IMG/VR virus record: IMGVR_UViG_3300037067_013349
Strand: one strand, 5' to 3'
Length of the DNA: 43,790 nucleotides
Source of the DNA: an uncultured virus (IMG/VR IMGVR_UViG_3300037067_013349)
Lineage: Duplodnaviria > Heunggongvirae > Uroviricota > Caudoviricetes
Shown here: one piece after another, positions 5,670 to 37,916 of the stretch
How the letters are laid out: each line of letters begins with the position of its first letter
Position numbering within the stretch: the first letter of the stretch is position 1
Notes under the pieces: generated by a model
The model's input: only the letters and a program-made list of their open reading frames with translations
Told to the model about the DNA's origin: nothing
Databases searched by the model: none
Position numbers and translations under genes: made by a program

Positions 5670-8600
5670 CTATTCTTCGGCTGTCAAAATACCGTCCGTG
5701 AACGTTAATTTTCTCGTCGGTGATCCACCACTGGTATCTGAAACGTAATACACTTTCGTTCCAGCTAATCCTGATGGTACAGGACCAGTAGCACCAGAGG
5801 CACCAGCAATACCTGAGGCACCATCTATACCGGTTGCTCCTGATGCACCGTCTATGCCAGTGGCACCTGTAGCTCCAGTTTCACCTTGAGGCCCAGAAGC
5901 TCCGCCCGGATCACCTTGGGGGCCGGTTGCTCCTGATGCACCATCTATGCCAGTGGCACCCGTTAATCCAATGTCACCCTGAGGACCCGTTGATCCTGTA
6001 GCACCAGTAGCCCCCGTTAAACCAACAGGACCAGTCGAGCCAGTCGCACCAATGGCTCCCGTTTCGCCCTGAGGACCCGTTGATCCTGTAGCTCCCGTTT
6101 CACCCTGCGGACCAGAAGCCCCTCCAGGATCTCCCTGCGGGCCAGTAGCACCTGAGGCACCATCTATGCCCGTGGCTCCCGTTTCGCCCTGAGGACCCGT
6201 TGAACCTGTGGCTCCAGTTTCACCTTGAGGACCAGAAGCACCACCAGGATCGCCTTGGGGACCGGTAGCCCCTGTGGCACCCAGATCTCCTGTAGCTCCT
6301 TGAGGGCCAGTAGAGCCAGTGGCTCCTGTTTCACCCTGCGGACCAGAAGCACCACCAGGATCACCTTGGGGACCGGTAGCCCCTGTGGCACCGACTGAAC
6401 CCGGATCTCCTGTGGCTCCCGTGTCGCCCTGAGGACCGGTCGCACCGTCTATGCCAGTAGCACCTGTGGCTCCAGCTTCACCCTGTGGTCCGGAAGCCCC
6501 TCCGGGATCGCCTTGAGGTCCGGTGGCACCAGAAGCACCACTAGCGCCATCAATACCAGTAGCTCCTATTTCTCCTTGCGGACCGGTAGATCCTTGGACA
6601 CCGGTAGCACCAGAGGCACCGCTAGCTCCGTACGGACCCATTAAGCCTGTAGCGCCTGTTAAACCGATATCACCCTGCGGACCGGTAGCACCAGTAGCTC
6701 CCGTTTCACCTTGTGGTCCGGAAGCCCCTCCGGGATCGCCTTGAGGTCCGGTAGCGCCAGAAGCACCAGGATCTCCGGTGGCTCCGGTTTCGCCTTGAAC
6801 TCCACTGGCACCGTCTATGCCGCTTGCTCCTTGGACTCCACTAGCTCCATCGATACCGCTTGCACCGATATCACCCGTAGTTCCTGTTTCACCCTGAGGA
6901 CCCGTTGAGCCTGTGGCTCCCGTTTCACCCTGCGGACCAGAAGCCCCTCCAGGATCTCCCTGCGGGCCAGTAGCACCTGAGGCACCGGAAGCTCCCTGCG
7001 GACCGCTTGCACCAGTTGCGCCTGTCGCTCCTGTTTCACCCTGCGGACCAGAAGCCCCTCCAGGATCTCCCTGCGGGCCAGTAGCACCAGTTGCTCCTGT
7101 TTCACCTTGAGGGCCTGAGGCACCACCAGTATCACCTTGTGGGCCTGTAGCGCCTGAAGCCCCATCTATACCAGTTGCGCCTGCGTCACCTTGAGATCCT
7201 GTCGCACCGGTTTCACCTTGTACTCCTGATGCGCCTGCTTCTCCGGTTATACCGCTAGCTCCTTGAGTACCGGTAGCACCTGAAGCGCCTGAGGCACCAT
7301 CAATACCAGTGGCACCTGCTTCTCCTTGAGGGCCAGAAGCACCGCCAGTGGGACCTTGCGGTCCTGTAGATCCGGTTGCGCCAATATCACCGGTGTCGCC
7401 AGTGTGGCCAGTAGCCCCGGAAGCACCTGGAAAACCAGTATAACCTTGTTCTCCCTGTGGGCCAGTAGCACCTGAGGCACCACTGGCACCATCGATGCCG
7501 GTGGCTCCTGTTAGTCCAATGTCGCCTTGTACACCAGTAGCACCTGAAGCTCCTGAAGCACCAGTCAGACCAGCACCAGTCGCACCAGTGAGGCCAGTAA
7601 AACCTGTAGCACCAGAAGCACCAGAATATCCGGTATATCCACTAGCGCCTTGAGCGCCTGAAGCTCCTATACCAGAAGCTCCCTGGGTACCCGTAGCACC
7701 TGAAGCACCTGAAGCACCATCGATACCAGTGGCACCAGTAAGACCTGTTTCACCTTGTGGGCCTGTAGCACCTGAAGCCCCGCTAGCTCCATCGATACCA
7801 GTAGCACCCGTGTCTCCGACACCTGAGGCACCTTGGACACCCGTAGCACCTGAGGCACCTGAAGCGCCATCGATACCAGTGGCACCTGAAGGGCCAACAA
7901 GACCGGTAGCACCAGTAGCTCCCGTTAAACCAACAGGACCAGTCGAGCCAGTCGCACCTACGGGGCCACCAAATGGACCAGAAGCTCCCGTTAGACCAGT
8001 TGCTCCGACAGGACCAGTTGCGCCGGTAGCACCAGCTCCCTGAGGACCAGTACTACCGGTTGCACCTGCATCGCCATCAGCACCAGTTGCGCCGGTTGCA
8101 CCTGCATCGCCATCAGCACCAGAGGCTCCAGCATTTCCTTGAGAACCGGTTGCACCTGCGTCACCAGCAGCACCAGTCGAACCAGTTGCACCAGTAGGGC
8201 CACCAGAAGGACCAGTAGCGCCAGTCGGGCCAGTGATACTAACGCCAGTGGCCCCTGTTGCACCTTTGGAACCAGTAGCACCAGTTGATCCAGCGATACC
8301 GGTTGCTCCTGCTGGACCAGAGGCACCACCAGTTGGGCCTTGTATACCAGTAGCTCCGGTCAAGCCGGTAGCTCCAGCTACTCCAGTCGCCCCGTCACGA
8401 CCGATGCCTGTAGCACCAGTTGCACCAGCTACACCAGTTGAGCCACCTACACCAGTTGAGCCTGTTGAACCAGCAGGGCCGGAAGCTCCACCAGTAGGGC
8501 CGGTTGCTCCCGGCTGCCCGGCAGGACCAGAAGCACCATCAAGACCAACACCAGAGGCACCAACAGGACCACCAGGGCCGGTTGAACCTGTCGCCCCCGT

Positions 8601-11600
8601 TGGACCACCGCCAGGACCAGTAGCACCGGCGGCACCATCAGCACCAGTTGAGCCAGTCGCCCCAAGTCCGCTAGCACCCTGCGGGCCAGTTGAACCGGTA
8701 GCTCCGATTGGGCCACCAGCAGGGCCAGTTGCGCCAGTGAGTCCAATACCAGTAGCACCAGTAGCACCAGTCGGGCCACCAGAAGGGCCGGTAGCACCAG
8801 GAGTGCCAGTTGCACCTGTCGCTCCAATACCAGTAGCTCCAGTTGCACCAGGCAAACTGATTCCAGTCGAGCCGGTTGCTCCTGATGGACCAGACGCACC
8901 ACCAGTAGGACCGGTTGCTCCTATCGGACCCGTCGAGCCCGTGGCACCAGCTCCTGTCGCGCCGATAGGTCCGATTGGTCCCAGCGACCCTTGCGGCCCT
9001 GTCGAGCCAGTCGCCCCTGTCGGACCGCCGCTGGGGCCGGTAGCTCCAGCCGCACCGGTTGCTCCAGAAGCACCAATGATACCAGTTGAAGACCAAGATA
9101 GATTACGATAACCGTCTGTGACTAATACCTGACCGGCTGAGCCGTCGATATTTGGGAATCGCATGTTGCTAATAACAACATTCTTCCCGGTGCCCCATGC
9201 TGAGAGTTGTAAATCCTCCCCAGACACTGAATGGATGACCGATATTTGTAGGCCGCCTGCGTCATCGTATTGTAGCCCAGCACTATCAATTAAACGGCCG
9301 TGAGTACCAGCAAATGGTATCCTATTTGGTGTGAGCCGCGTCCCATCGTTCAGAATAAAGCCTTTACGAGCACCATTAGTTGTGATTGTAAAGTACAGAT
9401 CATCTTGTATGAATTCAACTGCACCAGCTTCTGGTACTGCTAGAACGTCACCAGACTCCATTTTCACCGGTGCATTACCTGGTGCAGCTTTACCAGCTTG
9501 AATATGCAATCTTGCAGTTGGATTATGTATGCCAATACCTGTTTGCTGCCCAGTGACCACAACCGTTTCATCCGCTCTCATTCGCTCCAGTGGATGATAG
9601 AAGTTGGTCAAACGAGTCGCGTTATATTCGGGAACACCAGCGTTATTGTCAAGAGTGACAGTCCCTAACCAGCGATATCCCTTATAGTTGCCACTGGCAA
9701 CGAAGACCGGGACGCCATCTAAGGTTGCAAGACCGTCTGAATCAACTTGTATCCAGTATCCCGCTGCCAAATCGTCCGCGAACACACCAGACGTATGACT
9801 AACGACGCAAGCATACGTGTAGGAATAGAGAACTCTTTGGCCTATTGAATATGATGTCGCGGTAGCCCAATCTTCAATACGGCTCTCAGAAACAGGAGTA
9901 TATTCAACATACTTCAATTCGCCAATAGTAGCAAACCATAGTTGATCTGCACCATCTATCTCCTGCATCGGATATGTGCACGCAGTCACATCAATGCGAT
10001 AAAATCGATATTCTATCGCATTATCGAAAGTGAAATAATCAGACCATATATCAACGCCAGATGGCGGGTCGACATCGGTTCTTGTGTCCAAGACCGACCA
10101 ATTGACATTATCATTCGAGCCAGAAAATGTCCATGTCCTTGGCAGTGATGGATAATAAAGCTTGGCTTTAAATGCGTATTTGTTGATAGCCTTCTTCACA
10201 TATGGACCAAAGTCATATGTGATCCACATAGGCGTTTGGAAAGGATCGCCTGGCGTGTAGCCAGTGCCACCAATTTGAACACCCCATCCCGGATTTCCAG
10301 GCGTGTCTTCTTGGTTGAAAGCGTACCAACCGTACAGATATGTGCCACCGACCTGGACACCAGTTGAACTGGTAATGACCATGTTTGGCGTGGGATCGAC
10401 AAACGACGTCATTACCGCTGTACATGTAGTCGTTCCAGTATTGTATATGCCATCAGACGGTACAAACTTCCAGGGTGCGAACTGAATGTCAAAAGACGTG
10501 GCGTTTACAAATGATGCGAAGACATCATATGTTCTATTGGCAATTAATGGATTTGCACCCATATCATTGACAATATTCGAAACTGTTGGGGCAGTAGCAA
10601 TATTGACGACATCCCAAACACTATTGGTGTCATCATATAACCTAATCAAACTTGATTCTACGAAATTCCAACTTAAAATGGTGGAGCTAGTTATTTTAAG
10701 ATTGCCGCCAACTATGTCGCTGTCAGCAGCGTCTCCGCCATTATCAACCCATGACAAATTACCATAGCCGTCTGTTTGTAGGACTTGGGTTGGAAGGCCG
10801 TTATCTCTTGGAAGATCAAGCGCACCTAATATAATATTACCAATCGTTCCTGCCGCGATTGAGATGTCGCCTGTGTCTTTCTTCCTCTCAACAATGTTGT
10901 AAAAATTGCCTATCAATGAGTTATTGAAATAAGGTGTACCAGCTATATCATATAACGACAATATCCCAAGCCATCTGTATCCTTTGAAATCTCCAGAATT
11001 GGCATAGACAGGAACACCATCAAAAACGCCTAGCCCACATGCTTCAACCAAAATCCACAAACCGCTTGCTAAATCTGTAGCAAAATCACCTGAAGTATGA
11101 GCAGAGAGGCATGCATAGACGCTATCGTGAATAACTCTATCGCCAACATTATAAGCTGTACCAGTTTCCCAATAGCTGGCTCTTGAATTAGCTGGAACAC
11201 CGCGTACGAGCTTAATCTCATTTAGCTCAACATACATCGCCCCATAACCAGCGTCTGCGGGGCAATTGGTGATGAGCTTATAATAGCGATAAGCTATTCC
11301 ATTAGAAAATGTATAATAAGCACTCCATGTTTGATCACCTGGGCCACTTATGCCGGTTCTCGAATCCAACAGAACGTAATCGACGCCGTTCTTTGAGCCG
11401 TAGAGGGAGAATTCGGTTGGAAACGCTCCATTGTCGTTTGCCCGTAAAGCATATTTATTAACAATGGTTGGAATGTTGAAGTCGTATTGTATCCAAGCTG
11501 AGGTAGCTAGCGGAATTGGTGTTGATGACCAGCAACGAGCCACATCGTCACTAAAAGCGTTCCAAGCATCATATAGTTCACTACTTGCACTACTGACCTG

Positions 11601-12926
11601 TGGTGCTGGCGTAGCATCAGATGTCATTGTCGTGGTGCATGTTGTAGTTCCAGGATTGTTAGCACCATCAACAGACACAACTTTCCATGGGGCGAAATCG
11701 ATATCAAACGCAGTCAGCGTACCATTATAGACGGCGAACACATCATAAACCAAATCTGACTCTAATGCATTACCACCTAAATCATTGGAAAGGTTAGAGG
11801 CAACAGGTTCAGTCGCTATATCGAGCAGCTCCCAAGCAAGCACGTCAGTATTATAGAGACGAATGTGACTTGAGGAATAGAAGCTCCAGCTTAGAACATC
11901 GCCAGCAGAAGCTTCTAATCGACCACCAACAGTATCACTGCTCTCGCCACCAGGCACAATCATGCTATTAACATAACGAACTGTCGCTACGTCATCTGCT
12001 ACTGATGGGGTCGGTGTGTGATTGTTGAGGAACTCGTTATCCGTCCCAAGATCGACCGCTGGAATGCGGAATGTATTATGATTAATGACGTTGTTGTCTG
12101 AACCAGAATCCAAGGTGAATGATGATCCGACAGCCCGCTCTACCAATGCGTTGTTCTCGATAGTATTGGAACTTGCACTTACGAGCTTTACAGCGTCCAA
12201 ATTGTCATCGATTTTGTTATAGTGCAGGACGTTGCTGTCTGAATTCTGAACATAAAAGCCAATAGTATTCGACTTAGATGTGCTCTCAGTGATTGAGTTA
12301 TTGTCAGAATAGACGATAGAAAAGCCCGTATTGACGTTAGAATCACTAATATTTTCTTCACCGTGGTTTCCGGTGGAGTTGAAAATACCGATACCATCGG
12401 CATTGTTTAAGGTTGTGTTATTCGAAATTGTGTTATCGTTCGAAGAATTCTTGAGTACGATGCCGTATTCGCGGTTGCCGTCACAAGTGTTATTAGTTAT
12501 GACGTTATTTCCGCTTCCAGTTAATTCGATACCGTTCTTATTCCCTGTGCACACGCACAAATCAATAGTAAAGACGTCTTCTGGAGATGAGTTATCAAGG
12601 AGAATACCAGCTTGGTTGTCTGTAGATGCTGTCACTGTGAATAACTTAAACATGCCGGACACAGCAGTAATCCGGACAGTCGGTGCAGACGTCCCATCTC
12701 CTCTAATAATCGTTGTTCGTGGATCGTCAGTATAAATATTGAGGATCTTGTTGATTGTTAGATTCTCGGTATATGTCCCCGGCCTGACGTAAATAACGTC
12801 TTTCTCAATAGCAGCATTAATAGCCGCCTGGATAGTAGTGTATTCATCATAGTCAGTAGAACCGACGCTGATGGTGTAATCAGCAGTTGCTTTAGTGACT
12901 ATTCTGTCGGTATTTCTTAACGTCAT
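5670..12926 (-). CDS. Collagen-like tail fibre / virion surface protein with a right-handed beta-helix, two discoidin(F5/8)-like plus CBM5/12-like modules, and about 1100 aa of G-X-Y repeats
   Basis: [22 protein letters not shown] followed by GI.L..S.NN.I.NN repeats; WIQYDF..NKY..P....GS....W..LD.R..YRYY twice; W.TGTAY.VG.RV..YAC..HTSG twice; GAT/GAS/GPQ repeats. Confidence 0.85.
5775..9075 (-). repeat. Collagen G-X-Y coding repeat region
   Basis: Recurring [23 protein letters not shown] units; GC-rich periodic DNA. Confidence 0.9.
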
Positions 12927-13938: not shown

Positions 13939-14415
13939 TTACTTGGGCAGAGGTGCTGGGCAAACCAGAGGTTGCGTCGGAGCGCAGGCTGCCGGTGTAC
14001 AAGCCGCAGGAGCACAGGCTTCAGGAGCACATTCCTTCCTACGGTGACGACGCCGCTCGACTTCACGCTTTACGACGACTACCTCACGAGTTCTCACAAC
14101 CCGGCGCTTCGCCTTTTCGCAAGTAACAGGCTCACAAGCTGCAGGGGTGCAAGCCGCAGGGGTGCAAGCCGCAGGGGTGCAAGCGTTGCAAGCTCTCTCA
14201 GCGGCTCTCGATGCTCGACGCTCCTTGCGGACTTCTCTGTCGCCTGGGATCAGCTTGACCGCACCGGCCATAATGTGACGAACAGGCCGAACAGCACGGA
14301 CTTTGTGAACCTCAACGGCAGTACAAGCGGCAGGGGTACAAGCTTCCGGCGCACATGCAGCTGGGGCACACGGTGCGCCCAACATTGCTGCGGATAACAA
14401 AAGTGAACTCAACAT
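13939..14415 (-). CDS. Secreted Cys/Pro/Ala-rich repeat protein (ACTPA/ACAPE)
   Basis: GGAGG upstream of the ATG at 14415; signal-peptide-like MLSSLLLSAAMLGA; three clusters of C-x-P-A-A pentapeptides. Confidence 0.8.
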   Translation of the reverse strand: MLSSLLLSAAMLGAPCAPAACAPEACTPAACTAVEVHKVRAVRPVRHIMAGAVKLIPGDREVRKERRASRAAERACNACTPAACTPAACTPAACEPVTCEKAKRRVVRTREVVVVKREVERRRHRRKECAPEACAPAACTPAACAPTQPLVCPAPLPK

Positions 14416-16478: not shown

Positions 16479-16491
16479 GGGCTGGATACTC

Positions 16492-17982
16492 CCTGTAGTC
16501 CTGTAATTGCTTGGGAACGAACACTGTTCTCCCTTTTATGTGGAGTAGTTCCGCGTCGACCTGTAGCCCTGTAATCCTAACGCTATTCTCATTATCACTT
16601 CAACATTTCAGAAAAATCCTGCAGCCCTATCGATCCGGCCATCTTCACTGTTTGCGCCTGTAGTCCTGTAATTGCCTAGTAGTTACCTCCATTGCGAAGA
16701 GGCTTTGTGACGTTAATCACGACCTGTAGTCCTAACGCTATTCTCCATTTTACCGAGAACGAAATGGCCCTTTCCCTGTAGTCCTAATGCTTCATTCGGC
16801 ACCCTACTTCACCTGTAGTCCTAACGCTATTTTCATTAATCGTATCAAAGTCGTAATCGAGCGACCTGTAGTCCTGTAACGCTATTCTCCATTGCGATCA
16901 ATCGCTACACGCGGCGGCAAACCTGTAGTCCGCAGGGTAGCCACTACGAACAGATGGACCTGTAATCCTGGAAACGAACGCTCTATTTGGGAGCCTGTAG
17001 TCCTAACGCTATACCAGAAGTATGGCGACCTGTAGTCCTGTAGTTACCTGGGAACGAACGTTATTCTCCATTGCTTCTCCGAAGCACCTTCGGAATGTGG
17101 AACCTGTAGTTACCTGGGAACGAACGCTATTCTCCATTGACGGTCGCTTCAAGCAATATATGGGACTCCTGTAGTCCTGTAATCCTGGGAACGAACGCTA
17201 TTCTCCATTTGGGAAGGCGATACTCAACAGCATTCTGCACCTGTAGTTACCTGGAACGAACGCTATTCTCCATTCACTTCGGTTGAAGTCTGGTCCACCG
17301 CTGACCTGTAGTTACCTGGGAACGAACGCTATTCTCCATTAAAACCGAGCATACCATCTCCCCTGTAGCTGCTAAGCAAATACGCCATGGGAGCCTGTAG
17401 TCCTGTAGTTCTAATGCTGTTCTCCATTCATAAACACAAACCGCATAAATCGGAGTGTCCTGTAATCCTGTTTTGAGCCTGCCGTATCAGATTCCTGTGA
17501 CCCTGTAGTCCTTCTCCATTTTACTCGGTCAGATAGGCTCCATGTGACTTACCTGTAGTCCTGTAATTCAAGCGGGCCAAGAATACATCCTGTAGTTACC
17601 TGAGAACGAACGCTACTCCATTTTTCAGAAGAGATACATCATCCTGTAGTCCTGTAGTTTACCTGGGAACGAACGCTATTCCATTTGCCGCAAATTCGAC
17701 AGGCTATACGATCTCCTGTAGTCCTGTAGTTACCTTGGGAACAAACGTTATGCTCCATTAAACTGGGAACGAACGCTATTCTCCATTAGTTGCTCGACTC
17801 GCTGTTCGGTCTGCGCCCTGCAGTTACCTGGGAACGAACGCTATTCTCCATTTGGCGCGTCCGTGATCTATATGCCTGTAGTCCTGTAATCCTGGGAACG
17901 AACGCTATTCTCCATTGCTTTGGCTAGTGAAGTCTTCTAGCTTGGTCCTGTAGTTACCTGAGAACGAACGCTATTCTCCATT
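16492..17982 (-). CRISPR. CRISPR-like array 1: about 27 degenerate repeats; full repeat 36 nt (+ strand CCTGTAGTTACCTGGGAACGAACGCTATTCTCCATT); spacers mostly 27-31 nt
   Basis: Perfect 36-mers at 17103 and 17305; variants beginning CCTGTAGTCCTGT or CCTGTAGTCCTAA; unique spacers between them. Confidence 0.9.
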
Positions 17983-17989
17983 TCGCTAT

Positions 17990-18547
17990 TTAGGTTGTTT
18001 CCGGCATCTTGTCTTTCTGCACGGCCTCGGTAGCAATAGCATATTGCAGCCTGACATAGCTCGAAGCCAATATCAGAAGCGTGTTGAGATTGACGGTGAT
18101 TTTCTCCTTGGGACATTCCAGGTGCACCAGTATCTCATCATTGACCTTTCGGCCTTTTATCTCAACCGCTCCAACTTCGTTGTTCAAAATCTTGCCGTTG
18201 ATCCAAGCGGTGACGCCGTGACCGCTTGGATCGGCCCAATCGTCCGACAGACCGGCAGCCGCCATGAAAGCCAAAAGGCTTTTGCCCTCTGGCGATCGTG
18301 CTAAGCTAGAAGACATTCCAGAAGGTTTAGGGAACTTTACTGGAAGCCTCACCACTATTTCGCGCTCCACAGGAGTTTCGTCGTCTCCGAATTTGACTAT
18401 CCATACTTCCGTGGGCGGATCAGAGGTATGGCAGAGTCGAACCAGCGATATGAGTTGAGCCTTACCTTCGAGTTCCCGATACTCGCTGAGAGACCGCTGC
18501 TTTTTGTAAATGGAGCACAAATCTCCACGCTTCAAAACTGACTTCAC
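17990..18547 (-). CDS. Hypothetical protein between the arrays
   Basis: 185-aa ORF, GGGGAG Shine-Dalgarno, stop 7 nt before array 1. Confidence 0.75.
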   Translation of the reverse strand: MKSVLKRGDLCSIYKKQRSLSEYRELEGKAQLISLVRLCHTSDPPTEVWIVKFGDDETPVEREIVVRLPVKFPKPSGMSSSLARSPEGKSLLAFMAAAGLSDDWADPSGHGVTAWINGKILNNEVGAVEIKGRKVNDEILVHLECPKEKITVNLNTLLILASSYVRLQYAIATEAVQKDKMPETT

Positions 18548-18618
18548 ATTACTACTCCCCTTGAGCCATTGAAAATCATCATTGATGTCCGTATCTTTTT
18601 ATAGCTCGACGAATAGGG

Positions 18619-19140
18619 TCAATTAGCTTCGAGTTCAATTATCTTAGCTTGAAGCTCGGCAATTTGCGCCCGAAGAGCCTCGTTCTCCGCTTCCAGTGTC
18701 TTGATGCGGGCTAAAAGCTGGTCCTGGACTGCCTGCATCGACGCCTTGACCTTGCGGGCTTCCTTATATGGGTCGGCTGGCTTGGCCCGGCGACGACGTG
18801 GCGGAACGTCGGATTTCGTCTTGGCGAGCATACCGTTGTACATGTCGCGAAGCTTGCCATCCTTCCATTGATATTCTTCCGGATAATGATTGAGCATCAT
18901 CCGTAATTCGGAGAAGGTCAAGCAAAGGTCGCTGACATATTCATCCAGGATGGCCAGAAGCTTGTTGTTGTCCAGGATCTCGTTGTCGGCCCGAAAGTCT
19001 GGGTCTTCATAGACACTGTTCAATAGAGTTGCCCGCCGATAGGCATTATGGCCACTCGACTGCTGCAGCTTCCGGACTTGCTGTAAGAGCTTCTTGTACT
19101 GCCTTTTGCAGCGTGGCTGGGTTGGTGCGGTCGACCTCAT
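18619..19140 (-). CDS. Hypothetical protein with C-terminal coiled coil
   Basis: AAGGAGG upstream; LLARIKTLEAENEALRAQIAELQAKI heptads. Confidence 0.75.
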   Translation of the reverse strand: MRSTAPTQPRCKRQYKKLLQQVRKLQQSSGHNAYRRATLLNSVYEDPDFRADNEILDNNKLLAILDEYVSDLCLTFSELRMMLNHYPEEYQWKDGKLRDMYNGMLAKTKSDVPPRRRRAKPADPYKEARKVKASMQAVQDQLLARIKTLEAENEALRAQIAELQAKIIELEAN

Positions 19141-19252
19141 CGATAGTCCTCCTTAGTCTTTTATGGAAAGCTGATAGTTGTGCACATTGGCGACAGCAAA
19201 ACTTCTTGTTGCCGTTCAATGGTGTCTTACATACTGGACATAAACCTGTCAT
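19046..19252 (-). CDS. Small zinc-ribbon protein (CPVC...KFCCRQC)
   Basis: CxxC plus FCxxxC motif; overlaps the next ORF. Confidence 0.45.
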   Translation of the reverse strand: MTGLCPVCKTPLNGNKKFCCRQCAQLSAFHKRLRRTIDEVDRTNPATLQKAVQEALTASPEAAAVEWP

Positions 19253-19295
19253 TGTGCGTATTAGAGAACCTGTAGTTATCGCGTTACGGGCTTCG

Positions 19296-19691
19296 TTACT
19301 GTAATCCTGCTTCTGCGTTTTGTTCCTCGACAGGCATATCGACCTCTATCAACTCCTTGACGCCAAGCTGAGAGGTCGTTACTCTTATCGCATTGTTGAC
19401 GATATCCCAAATCTTTACTTCGCGTTCAACTATCCCTTGGCAGTTGCAGTGTACTAAACCGCTCATTCTTACAGATACACAGCAACCGGTTGGGTTGTCC
19501 AGATGTACCTTGAATTGTCGGCGCTCATAATCCTGCCAAGCCCAAATTCGCTTGCCGCAAATCTCGCAGCGCGTTATAGCTGGATAACCGTGCCAATTTG
19601 GATCAAACCAAAGTAAAGCTGCCTTGCCGATAACTATCCCAACAAGAATGCATACTGCAAGTATCAAAAACTTAATCACGTAAATTCTCAT
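19296..19691 (-). CDS. Hypothetical membrane-anchored Cys-containing protein bounded by repeat cores
   Basis: N-terminal TM helix, CEICG; repeat-like core at 19709 upstream and at its own 3' end. Confidence 0.6.
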   Translation of the reverse strand: MRIYVIKFLILAVCILVGIVIGKAALLWFDPNWHGYPAITRCEICGKRIWAWQDYERRQFKVHLDNPTGCCVSVRMSGLVHCNCQGIVEREVKIWDIVNNAIRVTTSQLGVKELIEVDMPVEEQNAEAGLQ

Positions 19692-19720
19692 ATGCGCCGT
19701 TCGGAGCCCCCGCAGTCCTG

Positions 19721-19900
19721 TTATGTTGTCTGCAAGAAGTCTCTCATTTCGATCAATTCATCAACACTTCTGAATGACATTTGGTAGCCATCCTTTTCTA
19801 GTATGAGAATCAATCCTTGCAGCATAAGCTTGAGTCGTCGAAAATTTTCCACATTGTTTAAAAATACGAGAAGTTCGTGACGCCACGAGTTTGGCACCAT
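19721..19900 (-). CDS. 59-aa ORF exactly filling the space between two repeat units
   Basis: Hand-translated MVPNSWRHELLVFLNNVENFRRLKLMLQGLILILEKDGYQMSFRSVDELIEMRDFLQTT*; ATG abuts repeat 19901, TAA overlaps core 19709-19721. Confidence 0.55.
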   Translation of the reverse strand: MVPNSWRHELLVFLNNVENFRRLKLMLQGLILILEKDGYQMSFRSVDELIEMRDFLQTT

Positions 19901-20581
19901 CCTGCAGTCCTGTAGTTACCAAACACTGGATTTCCAAACGAGATTTATTAAACCTGTAGTCCTGTAGTCTAATGCTATACTCCATTGTATCGCTATGTCG
20001 CTACTTTGCGAAGAGCCTGTAGTCCTGTAGTTACCGAACGCTATTCTCCATTTTCACGTTCCACTCGATCTTGTTGAAACTCCTGTAGTCCTGTAATCAT
20101 AACGCTATCCCAAAATGTCAGGAGGGCGTCATTAGTCCTGTAGTCCTGTAGTTACCTGGAAACGAAATTTCACCACAAAACCGAATTTTCAAAGAACTCC
20201 TGTAGTCCTGTAGTCCTAACGCTATTCTCCATTACCGTAATTTATGGGGTACCTGTAGTCCTGTAGTCCTAATGCTATTCTCCATTCATACATTCATGTA
20301 TTTTGGCGGCAATGCTCCTGTAGTTACCTGGGAACGAATGCTATTCTCCATTTGAGCAAGATCGAGCTGTGCACCGGCATTTCCTGTAGTTACCTGGGAA
20401 CGAACGCTATTCTCCATTTGTCAACAACGCTGGTATACTCCGATTCCTGTAGTCCTAATGCTATTCTCCATTTGAGAAGTGGAACGGCCTGTGCTTCAAT
20501 GCCTGTAGTCCTGTCCTATAGTCCTAACCTGTTCTCCAGAGGTTCTTACCACCTGTAGTCCTGTAGTCCTAACGCTATTTT
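19901..20581 (-). CRISPR. CRISPR-like array 2: about 12 repeats of the same family
   Basis: Repeat starts at 19901, 19953, 20016, 20082, 20137, 20199, 20252, 20317, 20383 (perfect 36-mer), 20446, 20502, 20552; spacers mostly 27-32 nt. Confidence 0.9.
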
Positions 20582-20743
20582 TCACCATTTTTTACTGCAA
20601 AGAGCCAAAGCAATGTATGTCACTCCTATGAGAATCTGCAACCCCCAAAAGGTCCAAATTCTGATGACACCCATTACCAATAAAATGGCAAACGCTACAT
20701 TCGATATTCCAGACAGCATATCGACAATTTTTCTTCTGGTCAT
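20582..20743 (-). CDS. 53-aa two-TM membrane protein between repeat units
   Basis: Hand-translated MTRRKIVDMLSGISNVAFAILLVMGVIRIWTFWGLQILIGVTYIALALCSKKW*; degenerate repeat catgtagtaccttgaaacgctatt immediately upstream. Confidence 0.55.
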   Translation of the reverse strand: MTRRKIVDMLSGISNVAFAILLVMGVIRIWTFWGLQILIGVTYIALALCSKKW

Positions 20744-20847
20744 AATCCATGTAGTACCTTGAAACGCTATTAGGTGGTTCCCATCGCCTAACTATTGTCT
20801 TCCTCTTCCCTCAAGTGTTGTTACTCATGATTCAAGAGCAAGTGCTA

Positions 20848-21399
20848 CCTGTAGTCCTGTTATACTTCTTCTGGCAGCCTGAAAATATTAACCCACCTGC
20901 CATGGATTTTTGTTTTGCGCTTCACCAATTCGCCCGGTGTTCTAGCCAATGCTGCCATCACGCGGTCTGATGTTTTTGTGCATTCATGTGGCCACCCCAG
21001 CCGCTCGGCTATCAAATGTAACAACCCCTCGTCACCAAACATGACGGCTGGATTGTCCGTTTCTCTCAGCACTTCAACAGCAGCATCACATGCTCGCATG
21101 TTTGAACCATCTAATCTTAGCGGCCTGCAGTCCTGTTATTCAATCAATCAACGTGAAAAAGGGCGGACGACCTGTAGTCCTGTTATTTGCCATGTGTCGT
21201 CTGACTCACTTCACATGTATAATATATAAAATTCAGCTTGTGCTTGTCCTGCAGTCCTTAATACCGTGTCCCAAAAGGCGGTGTCCATTGATGGAAAAGG
21301 ATATAAATGCAAACTATTTCTGCCGCGAACGTCAAATTAAATGATACAAGCGATAGTAACGTTGAATGCCAATAAGTGGCGGGACAAGTCCTGTAGTCC
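20848..21399 (-). repeat. Dispersed minimal repeat cores CCTG(T/C)AGTCC(TGT) at 20848, 21124, 21171, 21248, 21390
   Basis: 10-13-nt matches to the conserved end of the array repeat, same orientation. Confidence 0.75.
20860..21099 (-). CDS. Hypothetical protein flanked by repeat cores
   Basis: 79 aa; stop overlaps CCTGTAGTCCTGT (20848-20860); core at 21124 upstream. Confidence 0.65.
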   Translation of the reverse strand: MRACDAAVEVLRETDNPAVMFGDEGLLHLIAERLGWPHECTKTSDRVMAALARTPGELVKRKTKIHGRWVNIFRLPEEV

Positions 21400-21407
21400 G
21401 TATCCGT

Positions 21408-21436
21408 ATTATATACTACTATAAAGTGGCTGTCAA
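21408..21436 (-). promoter_or_regulatory. Perfect sigma70 consensus promoter (TTGACA-17 bp-TATAAT) pointing into the repeat region
   Basis: + strand tgtcaa at 21431-21436 and attata at 21408-21413, 17-nt spacing; predicted start about 21401, just before the first core. Confidence 0.85.
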
Positions 21437-21452
21437 GTCTACAGCACTTTGT

Positions 21453-22598
21453 TCATTGCCTAACCGTAACGTCGATATCAACCTTGTTACAAGATCGTTG
21501 AATCAACGACTGCATTTGTTGCCAGTCCCATCGAGTCGTCTCGGTGTCACCAATACGTCCAGCATATGACAAATAGTAATCGGTGGGCGGGGCGAAAATG
21601 ACAAGATGACCGATGCCGTTTGTCACTAACAATCTCGTCACGTCATTGGCGAGATGAGTGCTCCAGGTCTTGATGAAATCACGCCAACGCCGCTCATATT
21701 TCGCTTTGTCGGCGGTCGAGCCCTGCTTCCTAGTCTTCTTGCTCTCCTGAATGTCCAAGGTGTTTCGTGTGTGCTCGACATCTTCGCCACGGCGAAGACG
21801 GAATATGGTTCTGCCATTGAACCGAAAAGAAAATGGCCGGTGTTGTGCTGCCAATAGGAATGCAGTCTTGTTCTTGTTAAGCGGCAGTCTCACCTTCGGA
21901 ATTGAATGACAGAGATAAGCTTGCCATCGACCGTCGCGTTCCTTCAAATCGACGCCCTTCAACTCCCATTCGCCAGCCGTAATTTTCCACAACGCATCGC
22001 GGACAGAATGTAACCGGTAGCTCTTGGTCTTGATGACGAAAACCATCGGACCGTAGCCGTCAACATCGACCTCAAGCTTCCAGTCTTCATCCTTGGTTTG
22101 TGGGACGATGATCCGACAATCTCGTTTGTGCAGCGGAATATTGCTGCGTTTGGACGATTGCGAAAGACCACCACAGCCAGCGAGAACGGTTATCCAGCGT
22201 GGATAAGCTGATCTGTATCCACGGTGGTGTAACAAATCCTTAACCGCCTTATGCACCGCCAACTTACCCTCTCTGCCCATTAATGGGTGCTCGGCTGCAA
22301 TGATTTCGTCAAGCTGCTGAGCGATTTCGTCGCTGTAGGGGTCGACTGGGCATCGAATGCGAGGACCGACTCTGCTTTCCGGCTCATAGAGCCATCGTTT
22401 GTCCTGTTCGAGCCATTCACGAACCAATAGGTGGTTATTGGCGTCAAAATGAAGCTGTAGCCAAGCCGACATGAAATCGTTGACAATTTGTTGAATGTCG
22501 GTGGCCAGTGAGAGCAAATGCTTTTTGTGCGACTTGAAGCTGTCGTCACTACCGATCAAATCAACCCGTTTGTTCTTGATGACTCGGAAATCTCCCAT
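21453..22598 (-). CDS. cas12f: Cas12f/TnpB-family protein B, predicted nuclease-dead and C-terminally truncated
   Basis: LWKITAGEWELKGVDL..DGRWQAYLCH WED signature; RuvC-I position reads TAFLLAA, RuvC-II position HLVIFAP; WDWQQMQSLIQ..DIDV ends the protein; clear paralog of 22825..24240. Confidence 0.75.
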   Translation of the reverse strand: MGDFRVIKNKRVDLIGSDDSFKSHKKHLLSLATDIQQIVNDFMSAWLQLHFDANNHLLVREWLEQDKRWLYEPESRVGPRIRCPVDPYSDEIAQQLDEIIAAEHPLMGREGKLAVHKAVKDLLHHRGYRSAYPRWITVLAGCGGLSQSSKRSNIPLHKRDCRIIVPQTKDEDWKLEVDVDGYGPMVFVIKTKSYRLHSVRDALWKITAGEWELKGVDLKERDGRWQAYLCHSIPKVRLPLNKNKTAFLLAAQHRPFSFRFNGRTIFRLRRGEDVEHTRNTLDIQESKKTRKQGSTADKAKYERRWRDFIKTWSTHLANDVTRLLVTNGIGHLVIFAPPTDYYLSYAGRIGDTETTRWDWQQMQSLIQRSCNKVDIDVTVRQ

Positions 22599-22611
22599 AT
22601 TGTCTCCATAA

Positions 22612-22687
22612 AGGTAACTCTGGCGAGGGCTAACACGGTACGGAATGCCCGCAGCTATTCTCGCCTTCGAGACGTACAGGACGCCTC
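22612..22687 (-). ncRNA. tracrRNA-like RNA copy 1 (3' tail AGUUACCU)
   Basis: 76-nt repeat; 5' hairpin GAGGCGU-CCUGU-ACGUCUC; GGCGAG/CUCGCC stem; tail complementary to repeat AGGUAACU. Confidence 0.75.
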
Positions 22688-22705
22688 TATTTGTGATTTA
22701 TAAAA

Positions 22706-22781
22706 ACAGGACTCTGGCGAGGGCTGACACGGTACGGAATGCCCGCAGCTATTCTCGCCTTCGAGACGTACAGGACGCCTC
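22706..22781 (-). ncRNA. tracrRNA-like RNA copy 2 (3' tail AGUCCUGU followed by a U-run)
   Basis: Near-identical 76-nt copy; tail complementary to repeat ACAGGACU. Confidence 0.75.
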
Positions 22782-22824
22782 CGGTTGTGATTCTGGATAT
22801 TAGTAGCGTGAAAGTAACTATTAA

Positions 22825-24240
22825 TTAACTATCCCGATTTTCGGATTTAATCTGCAGTCCCGGTTCGTCGTCTTCCTTCTTCCGCGACTTGCCTCCTTGC
22901 TTAATGACCACATTTATACCAGCAGCCTTACCAACTTGCTCCAACTGGCGTTGCATATGGTACCAGTCCCATGCCGTCGATTCGCTACGGCCTATCTTAC
23001 CAACATGGGACAAATAGCGGCTATCACGCCATTTCCCGGTCGGTTGATAAGTCACGAGACGCCCAATGCCGAATTTGACACAGGTACTGATGACTTCTGC
23101 GGCCCAATTGTTGTTGAAGGTTTTGGTCCGATTGCGCCAATTGCGTTCCGATTTCTTTCGCCAGTCATGAACCTTACGGCCATGATTCTTACGAGCACTG
23201 GAAGCATACTTGTAGCTTTCGTTCTTACCAAATCGTTGAAGCGTCAAAGAACGACGAGCCCGTTTAATATGCTTGCAACTTCGCATTCGCATTTGCGTCT
23301 TGCCGTTGATGCGGAACAGAACAGCACCATATCGACCGGCTGATACGATAGCCGTTTTGGTGCTGCTGAACGATGCCGTGACGCCAGGAATCAGGTAGCA
23401 TATATCAGCGTACCACTTTCCTTCGAACTGGACGAGTTGGGAAGTGTTGAGAATATAATCGCCAGATGCAATTTTCCACAACACGCGACGAATTGGCGAC
23501 AACTTACGCCCACCGGTGGTGAGCCTAAACGTCATCGGACGTAGGAACCTTTTACCCTCAATCTTTTCATAGCGAACGGTCAGCTTCCATGGCTCATCAT
23601 TGCTACGGGGCACAACAAGATTGCTGTTGCTTGTATAGAATGGAACAGGTAGAGGCTTAGACGATTGTGGGTATTCTCCAAGCCCTGTTAAAATCCTAAA
23701 CCATCGTTTGTATTTGGATTTCGTCGCTGGTGCTTTGATAAGCGTCTTGCTAAGCCGATTGGTTACAATGCCAATCGGCTTAGTTCCAAGATTGGCATGC
23801 TGGGTGGTCAGCAGGCCATAGATCTGAATCCCCATTTCGTTGGTGTATGGCTGCACAGGGCATTTGATACGTGGCGGTATATCAACCTTAGGTTGATCTG
23901 ACGCCTTCTTTTTGCCGTTCTTGCCCTTCTTGCCATTTTTCTCGGCTTTTTGAGCCGCTGCCAGCTTGGCGTATTTCCGTGCCCACTCTTTGTCCTCCTC
24001 AATCCATTTGCGAAGGGCGGTTGGCGATCCAGCCTGTCGGTGCAATCGGAACCATTGACTATAAAAGTCGTTGGTAATTTGCTGCATCTGGCATGATAAC
24101 ATCACCAGACGTCTTTTCTCCTCGGCAAAATCGCCGTCACAGCCGCTCAATTCGACCCGAATGACTTTGGTGAGTCCATCAGGCTTCTTTTTACGCGGCT
24201 TCTTCGGGTCGTCTTTCACGGTCGTCTTCTTCTTACTCAT
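22825..24240 (-). CDS. cas12f: Cas12f/TnpB-family protein A, predicted nuclease-dead and C-terminally truncated
   Basis: TKVIRVEL N-terminal strand; KIASGDYILNTSQL..GKWYADICY; bridge region KYASSARKNHGR...RNRTKTFNNNWAAEVI..GIG; WDWYHMQRQLEQVGKAAGINV; GIDLG site reads IVSAG, EDL site reads YQP; no CxxC finger or RuvC-III. Confidence 0.8.
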   Translation of the reverse strand: MSKKKTTVKDDPKKPRKKKPDGLTKVIRVELSGCDGDFAEEKRRLVMLSCQMQQITNDFYSQWFRLHRQAGSPTALRKWIEEDKEWARKYAKLAAAQKAEKNGKKGKNGKKKASDQPKVDIPPRIKCPVQPYTNEMGIQIYGLLTTQHANLGTKPIGIVTNRLSKTLIKAPATKSKYKRWFRILTGLGEYPQSSKPLPVPFYTSNSNLVVPRSNDEPWKLTVRYEKIEGKRFLRPMTFRLTTGGRKLSPIRRVLWKIASGDYILNTSQLVQFEGKWYADICYLIPGVTASFSSTKTAIVSAGRYGAVLFRINGKTQMRMRSCKHIKRARRSLTLQRFGKNESYKYASSARKNHGRKVHDWRKKSERNWRNRTKTFNNNWAAEVISTCVKFGIGRLVTYQPTGKWRDSRYLSHVGKIGRSESTAWDWYHMQRQLEQVGKAAGINVVIKQGGKSRKKEDDEPGLQIKSENRDS

Positions 24241-24260
24241 TTAACATTCCCTATTGAAAA

Positions 24261-24336
24261 ACAGGACTCTGGCGAGGGCTAACACGGTACGGAGTGCCCG
24301 CAGCTATTCTCGCCTTCGAGACGTACAGGACGCCTC
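24261..24336 (-). ncRNA. tracrRNA-like RNA copy 3 (3' tail AGUCCUGU followed by a U-run)
   Basis: Third 76-nt copy directly upstream of effector A. Confidence 0.75.
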
Positions 24337-24507
24337 CGGTTTTCATGTAGGTTTATAGCTCCCTGCTGATGGTTGATTAACTTAAATCACCTGCGAGCTA
24401 CTTCTGTTATAGCCTCAGTGAAGCTATTAATTAACTGACTGAGCACATATTTCTCTGGGTTAAATCGTAGCAACCGTCGTGCTATAAGTACTATAGGGAG
24501 CCAAAAA

Positions 24508-37482: not shown

Positions 37483-37616
37483 GTTATTCTCCGTTTCGAG
37501 AGTGTATTTTAAAGCACAGGACTACAGTACAGGATAAAATACGTATTCAATATTAACAACGTAAGAGGTGTACCATCAAAACTGCATCACAATTTCCAGT
37601 AAGCTTAATAATCCCT

Positions 37617-37916
37617 GTGACTACAGCGGAGGAAGAGCAAATAGTCGAAAAGATTATATCTGATGCTCTGCCTTCTTACAGCTTTTTATCCAAAGCTTAC
37701 TATGAAAATCCAGTCGAAGCTCAACGAGCGCGTCTATTGATAAACGGAGAGGAGGTCAAAAGGGGTACCGTTGAGCAGATGAAAGAAGCTTTCACTTTAC
37801 AATCAAGCATCAACTCTAAAGCCAACATTATCGTTCAAGAGTGGCAAAAACAACCTTTATCTAACAAACCAGCTGGATTTGTGACCATTCATTCTAGGAT
37901 GGTCAGAATTCTTTAG
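37617..37916 (+). CDS. Hypothetical protein
   Basis: 99-aa ORF. Confidence 0.55.
   Translation: MTTAEEEQIVEKIISDALPSYSFLSKAYYENPVEAQRARLLINGEEVKRGTVEQMKEAFTLQSSINSKANIIVQEWQKQPLSNKPAGFVTIHSRMVRIL

Follow-up and report, generated by a model that had tools for sequence, protein, structure and literature searches.

In type V-F1 CRISPR (clustered regularly interspaced short palindromic repeat) systems, Cas12f1 works with a dual RNA, in which a trans-activating CRISPR RNA (tracrRNA) pairs with the repeat of the CRISPR RNA (crRNA) and the guide lies at the crRNA 3' end. Cas12f guides contain a pseudoknot and two repeat:anti-repeat segments, and TnpB guides have a similar split design. Nuclease-dead relatives were described recently: the parts of Hoffmann et al. 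(Nature 2026; PMC13472631) drawn on here report sigma-E-linked dCas12f activators that use single chimeric guide RNAs (gRNAs), with no tracrRNA-like species found, a C-terminal truncation of dCas12f that removes part of the RuvC site, and a distinct dCas12f cluster near CRISPR arrays, with putative gRNAs upstream and repeats that resemble the scaffold. Here we analyse a phage locus that resembles these systems, in a stretch of 43,790 nucleotides (nt) from an uncultured Caudoviricetes virus (IMG/VR record IMGVR_UViG_3300037067_013349; the whole stretch is called the window below). The locus holds three copies of a tracrRNA-like scaffold, two paralogous Cas12f-like genes (P0001 and P0002) and two repeat arrays (Table 1). 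We consider it probable that the three copies are genes for a compact tracrRNA which serves a phage-borne, nuclease-dead, C-terminally truncated Cas12f-like pair and whose 3' tails are matched to the repeats. The matching of tracrRNA and repeat alleles is well supported by a tail/repeat rule with compensatory changes across loci.

The original prediction proposed three near-identical RNA copies with two tail alleles that co-vary with two repeat alleles. The copies are ~80 nt each and have 8-nt tails. At the three tail sites the + strand reads AGGTAACT, ACAGGACT and ACAGGACT, and therefore the minus-strand copies 1, 2 and 3 end in AGUUACCU, AGUCCUGU and AGUCCUGU, respectively; directly after all three + strand sites stands an identical sequence, CTCTGGCGAGGGCT. 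Tandem Repeats Finder (TRF) recovers copies 1 and 2 as a tandem pair (22617-22792; period 94 nt, 1.9 copies, 95% matches), a pattern for the 38-nt scaffold core matches three times in the window and never in 100 shuffles, and a covariance model detects exactly three copies across the window. Within the 69-nt core, a single position separates copy 2 from copy 1, and likewise copy 3 from copy 1. The tail-2 sites are also spanned, with 0 differences, by contigs of two other studies (X4, 22685-22916; X3, 24159-24309), so the tail alleles are not an assembly artefact. The Rfam gathering scan and the tRNA scan of the window each returned 0 matches. In run X1, the summed contig depth over window positions 22544-22751 is 174-657 across the scaffold against ~11 in the flanks, and the scaffold core is common to many different contigs of this groundwater community.

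The repeats likewise have two end alleles. At no more than one mismatch, the 13-mers CCTGTAGTTACCT and CCTGTAGTCCTGT, which the original prediction names, occur 13 and 25 times in the window, against 0.01 expected for each, and all matches lie within 16492-21183 except one at 37516. At that position a lone ACAGGACTACAGT is found on the + strand (37516-37528). We classified every repeat end in 16480-21460, the check that the original prediction had proposed: 22 ends carry the terminal ACAGGACU-[A/G]CAGG (class B), 8 carry AGGUAACU-[A/G]CAGG (class A), 5 carry UUAGGACU-ACAGG and the remaining ends are degenerate, with class A and class B alternating inside both arrays. Read in the sense of the effector genes, the array unit is a repeat followed by a spacer of ~29-31 nt, the regular form of the repeat being AAUGGAGAAUAGCGUUCGUUCCCAGGUAACUACAGG. 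As is typical of type V-F, the arrays (two here) stand beside the effector genes on the same strand, and regular arrays are also present in the related loci L001, L003, L004 and L033. The results thus agree with the predicted three copies, two tail alleles and two interleaved repeat alleles.

We then compared tails and repeats in the nine loci where a scaffold is accompanied by a repeat 8-mer that occurs two or more times, setting the 8-nt tail against the commonest 8-mer before the terminal ACAGG. In eight of the nine, the tail pairs at 8/8 positions (Watson-Crick or G-U) with the dominant repeat 8-mer of its own locus. Tail AGUUACCU or AGUUACUU faces AGGUAACU in the window and L001, and AGUCACCU faces AGGUGACU in L002, L003 and L023 and, with G-U pairing, GGGUGACU in L004 and GGGUGAUU in L033. 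In L005, tail ACUUGCCU and repeat AGGCAAGU are both changed at three positions, each a double compensatory change. The second tail of the window, AGUCCUGU, is 8/8 Watson-Crick to ACAGGACU. Only 6/8 positions pair in L029 (AGCCACCC with GGGGGGCA), and non-cognate combinations in the same matrix mostly reach 3-6 pairs. In the more distant L036, the tail UACCUGA pairs with UCAGGUA over 7 bp. The proposed tracrRNA reading and its compensatory tail/repeat match are thus well supported by the comparison across loci.

A second contact follows the same logic. The loop of the 5' hairpin, P1, reads CCUGU wherever repeats end in ACAGG, that is, in the main clade. In the distant clade (L036 and L037) the P1 loop is AUUGGA, of which UUGGA matches the repeat end UCCAA; the L036 repeat GCCGCAAAGAGUGAAUGAAAGGUCAGGUAAUCCAAG ends in UCCAA-G, and L037 has an L036-like loop and repeat end, with a tail that pairs at 6/8 positions with the single partial repeat on its contig. 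The comparison indicates that two distinct portions of the scaffold read the final 13-14 nt of the repeat and that both contacts covary, an arrangement similar to the pseudoknot and split repeat:anti-repeat pairing of Cas12f and TnpB guides. By sequence and covariation, the element behaves as a tracrRNA with an anti-repeat.

The scaffold itself is strongly conserved. Its core is present 1-4 times beside every fetched relative, in 15 related loci (11 copies on 5 IMG/VR contigs of 8-364 kb, and more on 8 metagenome contigs and 2 contigs of metagenome-assembled genomes, MAGs), and the covariance model finds 25 copies, 24 of them distinct, in 16 sources. An exact-pattern scan of whole contigs gives two copies in L001, three in L002 and four in L003. 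Between loci whose proteins share 42-71% identity, that of the core is 90-99%. In the covariance-model alignment 97.4% of cells are paired, and 6 of the 7 pairs of P1 show double compensatory changes, its stems including GAGGCGU/ACGUCUC, GAGCCG/CGGCUC, GAGCGG/CCGCUC, CGCCUG/CAGGCG, GACGCG/CGCGUC and CGGCCG/CGGCCG. The covariation score of 0.173 compares with 0.068 in shuffles and was reached by 0 of 500, and all slid controls stay at or below 0.059. The three helices other than P1 are invariant and count as neutral evidence. The covariation term of RNAalifold on the MAFFT alignment was weak (-0.14), owing to a misalignment of P1 in the divergent members that the covariance-model realignment mended. 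Nine metagenome pattern matches (L015, L017, L022, L024, L027, L030, L031, L032 and L034) lack the rest of the scaffold and were rejected as chance.

The majority of scaffold copies finish in a U-run or in a hairpin plus U-run, and what follows downstream is either a ribosome-binding site (RBS) with the start codon of an effector gene or an array leader with its first repeat. This placement bears on a different explanation, in which the scaffold acts in cis, as a 5' leader of the effector genes (an attenuator, for instance, or a protein-binding site for autoregulation), and the tail/repeat match is incidental. Many copies do have an effector gene directly downstream, separated from it by a U-run or hairpin terminator and then the RBS (examples are window copies 1 and 3, L002c, L003, L004, L005, L019, L021, L023, L028, L036 and L037). 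However, L001a, two L003 copies, L029 and L033 stand ahead of arrays and not of genes, window copy 2 precedes no gene, the L002 copy at 11492-11572 is fused to a repeat end and spacer, and covariation of tail and loop with the repeat is unexpected for a pure leader. We regard a purely cis-acting role as very improbable; a dual role of the scaffold, as leader and tracrRNA, is possible.

The fused copy in L002 deserves separate mention. The scaffold at 11492-11572 runs directly into ...GACUACAGG, a repeat end, and a 29-nt spacer; such a fusion to a guide is found in only 1 of the 24 distinct copies. Over 11492-11607, a region also present on metagenome contig L020, there is no U-run: the RNA would read ...CUCGCCAGAGUCACCUGACUACAGG, then a 29-nt unique stretch, then a degenerate repeat, and AGUC/GACU could form a 4-bp hairpin. 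It looks like a natural single-guide fusion of tracrRNA and crRNA.

Based on these comparisons, we propose that the ~80-nt tracrRNA, composed of the 5' hairpin P1, an invariant three-helix core and the 8-nt 3' tail, would use two short helices to dock on the final 13 nt of every crRNA repeat. In one, the P1 loop CCUGU would form a pseudoknot-like contact with the terminal ACAGG beside the guide, while the tail would pair with the 8 nt immediately upstream of ACAGG. Tail 1 (AGUUACCU) would suit repeats that end in AGGUAACU-ACAGG, and tail 2 (AGUCCUGU) those that end in ACAGGACU-ACAGG and, less well, in UUAGGACU-ACAGG. The ribonucleoprotein would most likely bind DNA without cutting it, leading to silencing akin to CRISPR interference. 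That host or rival-element DNA is silenced we infer from the dead active site alone. The analysis shows the anatomy of the sequences, the fold, the loss of catalytic residues and the covariation; where the RNAs end, how they are processed and loaded, that DNA is bound and that guides might be divided between the two tails are inferences.

Why the window has a second tail is best approached through its class-B repeats. Of the 24 distinct scaffold copies, 2 have tail 2, and both belong to the window, the one locus in which ACAGGACU ends dominate and have mostly lost the tail-1 site. Class-B ends are the product of a duplication of the 8-nt module ACUACAGG, and such duplications also occur in loci that have no tail-2 copy (six in L001, one each in L002 and L003). 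We called an end composite when a tail-1-type site, GGURACU, is kept directly upstream of the class-B end, and pure when it is not. Of the 22 class-B ends in the window 16 are pure and 6 composite, against 1 pure and 7 composite among the 8 in L001-L003 (Fisher p = 0.009, for repeats that within an array are not independent events). Most simply, tail 2 can be read as a compensatory allele, which would enable the use of class-B repeats that lost the tail-1 site and so either keeps pure class-B units usable or let them spread. A stretch of 7 nt, GUCCUGU, is common to tail 2 and the P1 loop, and tail 2 may therefore have arisen by a short conversion.

The same observations may be read as neutral decay, in which class-B ends come from slippage of ACUACAGG, tail 2 is a by-product of recombination or gene conversion, and many units are disused. 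The module duplication in loci without tail 2 (six ends in L001), the 7-nt identity of tail 2 with the P1 loop, the truncated spacers, partial repeats and solitary mini-repeats of the arrays, and the lack of a detected cas1, cas2 or cas4 in the window are all in line with such decay. On the other hand, the repeat end that is most frequent in the window is matched by tail 2 at exactly 8/8 Watson-Crick positions, two separate scaffold copies have this tail and each of them has a U-run, an enrichment of pure class-B ends is confined to the locus with tail 2, and tail/repeat complementarity is kept throughout the family. Neutral decay is improbable in our view.

The original prediction went further and suggested two guide channels interleaved in the same arrays, which would be a reasonable extension of the pairing. 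In line with the matched tails, the predicted duplex energies of tail 1 are -10.7 kcal/mol with class A and -4.5 kcal/mol with class B, and those of tail 2 are -13.3 with class B, -9.7 with the UUAGGACU repeat and -7.0 kcal/mol with class A. That one phage draws two orthogonal tracrRNA/crRNA pairings from the same arrays, with the 8-nt anti-repeat as an address that would decide which guides are matured or loaded, we hold to be unlikely overall. Were it true, each guide set could have a use of its own, be it with a particular dimer state of the paralogs or at a particular time of infection, and the locus would be a natural case of two-channel RNA-guided DNA binding, in which the 13-nt repeat ends, with their tail and pseudoknot sites, suffice as guide handles.

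A stricter version assigns one channel to each effector, tail 2 and class B to P0001 and tail 1 and class A to P0002, so that one array feeds both. Its appeal lies in the gene order, with copy 3 upstream and copy 2 downstream of P0001 and copy 1 upstream of P0002, in the gap of ~6 kcal/mol predicted between cognate and non-cognate tail/repeat pairs, and in the interleaving of the repeat classes. Yet the scaffold bodies differ by 1 nt, and therefore an effector could discriminate only through the 8-bp duplex; L001, L002 and L003 have both paralogs and one tail type each; and P0001 and P0002 are predicted to bind each other (ipSAE 0.73 against 0.00), a prediction also compatible with homodimers. 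We find this assignment improbable.

To characterize the effectors, we examined P0001 and P0002 by sequence and by predicted structure. They are paralogs (32% identity, E 5e-76), and neither has a match in Pfam, NCBIfam or PHROGs. A word-indexed search of 5.8 billion clusters returned 11 matching proteins only, P0001 among them; an exhaustive profile search yielded 572 cluster representatives with E<=1e-3, of which 201 reach E<=1e-30, which puts the family at 201 clusters or more, counted at 50% identity. The usual length among the 150 family matches listed is 400-500 aa. In a collection with one genome per species (185,579 species), motif-based scans with two patterns, a kind of scan that can miss relatives, found 2 relatives only (A1, 0; A6, 2), both on short MAG contigs. 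Long and short dead-Cas12f paralogs occur together in at least four loci (the window, L001, L002 and L003).

The AlphaFold2 (AF2) model of P0001 (pLDDT, the predicted local distance difference test, 73.9) matches AsCas12f in Foldseek at E 3e-18, and VIA-align superposes it on the dCas12f chain 9n9c_A with Z 20.4 (root-mean-square deviation 4.6, 325 aligned) and on AsCas12f 8dzj_A with Z 19.7 (5.3, 342 aligned). The Cas12f-type WED/REC/RuvC fold is present, with VIA-align spanning P0001 residues ~20-458, and the family profile matches AsCas12f in the PDB at E 4e-18. For the catalytic site we take the AsCas12f triad to be numbered D225/E324/D401. Opposite position 225 in RuvC-I, where the mutant chain has Ala, P0001 has Ser (VSAG), and P0002 has Leu (LLAA) in this column of the family alignment; the RuvC-II Glu at position 324 has no acidic counterpart (VTYQP...RY). 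Neither protein thus has an intact RuvC triad (D-E-D), and the consensus of 42 sampled family members reads LxPG and LVYxQP at these two catalytic sites. The alignment stops at AsCas12f residue 361 of 422, the phage proteins ending after ~30 further basic, low-confidence residues, and therefore the TNB zinc finger and RuvC-III are absent; in the 42-member sample, weak matches to PF07282 are found in only 2 and weak matches to OrfB_IS605 in 7. TIGR-Tas and IscB-type guides were considered and rejected: there is no Nop or HNH family match, the fold is that of Cas12f and the guide lies 3' of the repeat.

P0001 and P0002 are predicted to bind each other through a symmetric REC-type, Cas12f-like interface. 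The ipSAE of 0.73, against 0.00 for the best control, passes a mark that was reached by 116 out of 157 solved complexes and by 2 out of 215 mismatched pairs; at least 57% of contacts are common to the runs, and the partners have a pLDDT of at least 74. This suggests a possible obligate P0001-P0002 heterodimer, unlike the homodimers of Cas12f, with the proviso that the pass may reflect the model's memory of solved Cas12f homodimers and does not tell a heterodimer from homodimers.

Several observations weigh against our proposal of a matched tracrRNA. The pairing amounts to just 8 + 5 bp, and two loci fit it imperfectly, L029 (6/8) and L037 (6/8, with one partial repeat). Copy 1 has no U-run or other terminator and continues directly to the RBS and ATG of P0002, which leaves its 3' end undefined. 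Tail 2 represents a single evolutionary event in one locus, so its co-variation with class B has n=1 and relies on the general tail/repeat rule from the other loci; moreover, L001 (a 184-kb contig) has 6 class-B ends and no tail 2, and hence a cognate tail is not required for class-B ends to arise. The search for spacer targets found none: 83 extracted spacers gave self-matches only against the window and related loci, and the array 1 spacers gave no match in a phage collection searched in distant mode, array 2, plasmids and large collections not being searched. Finally, the arrays are degenerate, with short spacers and partial repeats, and no cas1, cas2 or cas4 was found among 34 window open reading frames (ORFs) of at least 100 aa scanned with Pfam or 28 scanned with PHROGs; the locus may be partly decaying.

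On the minus strand the elements follow one another in the order copy 3, P0001, copy 2, copy 1, P0002, mini-repeats with small ORFs, array 2, three small ORFs and array 1, copy 3 lying just upstream of P0001. Table 1 gives their coordinates.

Table 1 Features of the locus, with window coordinates unless a related locus is named.
Feature	Coordinates	Strand	Description
tracrRNA-like scaffold copy 1	22608..22689	(-)	covariance-model match 97.0 bits; tail AGUUACCU at 22612-22619
tracrRNA-like scaffold copy 2	22702..22783	(-)	covariance-model match 94.6 bits; tail AGUCCUGU at 22706-22713, then U5
tracrRNA-like scaffold copy 3	24257..24338	(-)	covariance-model match 94.0 bits; tail AGUCCUGU at 24261-24268, then U5
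P0001, 471 aa	22825..24240	(-)	Cas12f fold; lacks RuvC acidic residues and TNB / RuvC-III C-terminus
P0002, 381 aa	21453..22598	(-)	paralog of P0001; catalytic residues likewise missing
sigma-70-type consensus TTGACA-17-TATAAT	21408..21436	(-)	perfect, 12/12 matches, consensus match only; just downstream of the 381-aa gene
solitary mini-repeats	20848..21402	(-)	AUAACAGGACU[A/G]CAGG and similar; between the 381-aa gene and array 2, small ORFs interspersed
array 2	19901..20589	(-)	heterogeneous repeats AAUGGAGAAUAGCGUU...ACUACAGG; spacers ~18-30 nt; mostly class-B ends
array 1	16492..17982	(-)	heterogeneous repeats; class A and class B ends interleaved; degenerates toward the distal end
leader-motif sites	window ~17990, ~20770; L001 ~9480; L002 ~9275, ~13125; L003 ~9300, ~13010; L033 ~2150		motif described in the text

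A conserved leader motif, ACC(A)CC..U.GCGU, stands immediately 5' of the first repeat of each array. The mini-repeats, which include AAUAACAGGACUACAGG, GAAUAACAGGACUGCAGG and GUAUAACAGGACUACAGG, lack the 5' part of the repeat and hold only the tail-2 site and the loop site, and some overlap the UAA stop of small ORFs. The sigma-70-type consensus is a possible promoter of a pre-crRNA that would comprise the mini-repeats and array 2. A motif AGTTAATTAATAG is common to the sites upstream of copies 2 and 3 (22803-22835 and 24425-24445, minus strand), and in L002 GTTAAC...CTACAAT precedes the scaffold copies; both are possible candidates for promoters of the scaffold RNAs. Scaffold and repeats also share, in the same sense, GAGAAUAGC, which belongs to the 5' part of the repeat (GGAGAAUAGCG) and to the scaffold core (GCGAGAAUAGCUG), for example at 17103-17138 and 22640-22665, and in L003 the two have GUACCG in common in its place. 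The repeats may derive from the scaffold, or both may bind one protein surface.

The rest of the window is phage DNA, with a collagen-like tail fibre, DNA methyltransferases and other PHROG families. The 2418-aa ORF at 5670-12926 (minus strand) has collagen-like Gly-X-Y tandem repeats and matches many PHROG tail-fibre families. Tandem repeats of 18-96 nt lie at 39489-40020 within a 929-aa minus-strand ORF (37913-40702), and a separate 15-nt tandem repeat of 3.3 copies lies at 14135-14184.

Compared with TnpB omega-RNA and TldR, the scaffold followed by a 3' guide is a shared trait, the fused L002 copy (11492-11607) has the same layout and the P0001 model superposes on TnpB 8h1j with Z 14.1. 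On the other hand, no transposon ends or TnpA, as in IS200/IS605 elements, were seen at the window locus, its RNA lies 5' of the genes and does not overlap a gene 3' end, and it has arrays of many spacers.

The locus also resembles the dCas12f of Hoffmann et al., as far as the parts of that paper drawn on here describe it. P0001 and P0002 share its nuclease-dead, C-terminally truncated Cas12f fold (Z 20.4 to 9n9c), and the architecture matches the text description of the array-associated cluster, to which this clade may belong: the window scaffold and repeats share GAGAAUAGC, and in related loci the structured RNA lies upstream of arrays. In contrast to the sigma-E systems, no extracytoplasmic function (ECF) sigma factor (rpoE) or helix-turn-helix (HTH) partner was found among the window ORFs scanned with Pfam and PHROGs, and the scaffold is separate from the arrays and has a covarying anti-repeat, which indicates a dual RNA. 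The family is phage-encoded, and its wider profile is closer to AsCas12f (E 4e-37) than to the Fta protein annotated as nuclease-deactivated Cas12f (E 5e-16). A literature search, mostly of abstracts, returned no account of any single locus in which two anti-repeat alleles match two classes of repeat, nor of a phage dCas12f that has two such alleles.

By fold and sequence, P0001 and P0002 are nearest to type V-F1 Cas12f1 (AsCas12f, SpCas12f1, Un1Cas12f1; PDB 8dzj, 7wju, 9i8y, 7c7l), yet they fail its defining nuclease features, being without the RuvC-I Asp and RuvC-II Glu and ending before the TNB zinc finger and RuvC-III. The locus shares with type V-F1 the dual-RNA design, tracrRNA-repeat pairing, a guide at the crRNA 3' end and a dimer (predicted here), and by analogy the pairing appears split into two short segments beside the guide. 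It differs from it in a tracrRNA of only ~80 nt, located 5' of the effector genes in 1-4 copies per locus, in its two paralogous effectors, heterogeneous repeats and two anti-repeat alleles, and in being phage-borne, with adaptation genes not seen among the window ORFs that were scanned. Should the pairing model hold, a miniature dead Cas12f of this family needs only 13 nt of repeat to recognize its guide (8 for the tail and 5 for the hairpin loop), and the 8-nt part has been re-addressed in nature at least four times, twice in this one phage. This would offer a handle for testing the minimum length of a Cas12f-type repeat:anti-repeat contact, and it suggests how programmable DNA binders of very small size (380-470 aa) could be given orthogonal guide sets. 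The locus extends the dCas12f regulators described of late by a phage-borne, array-linked and apparently dual-RNA branch.

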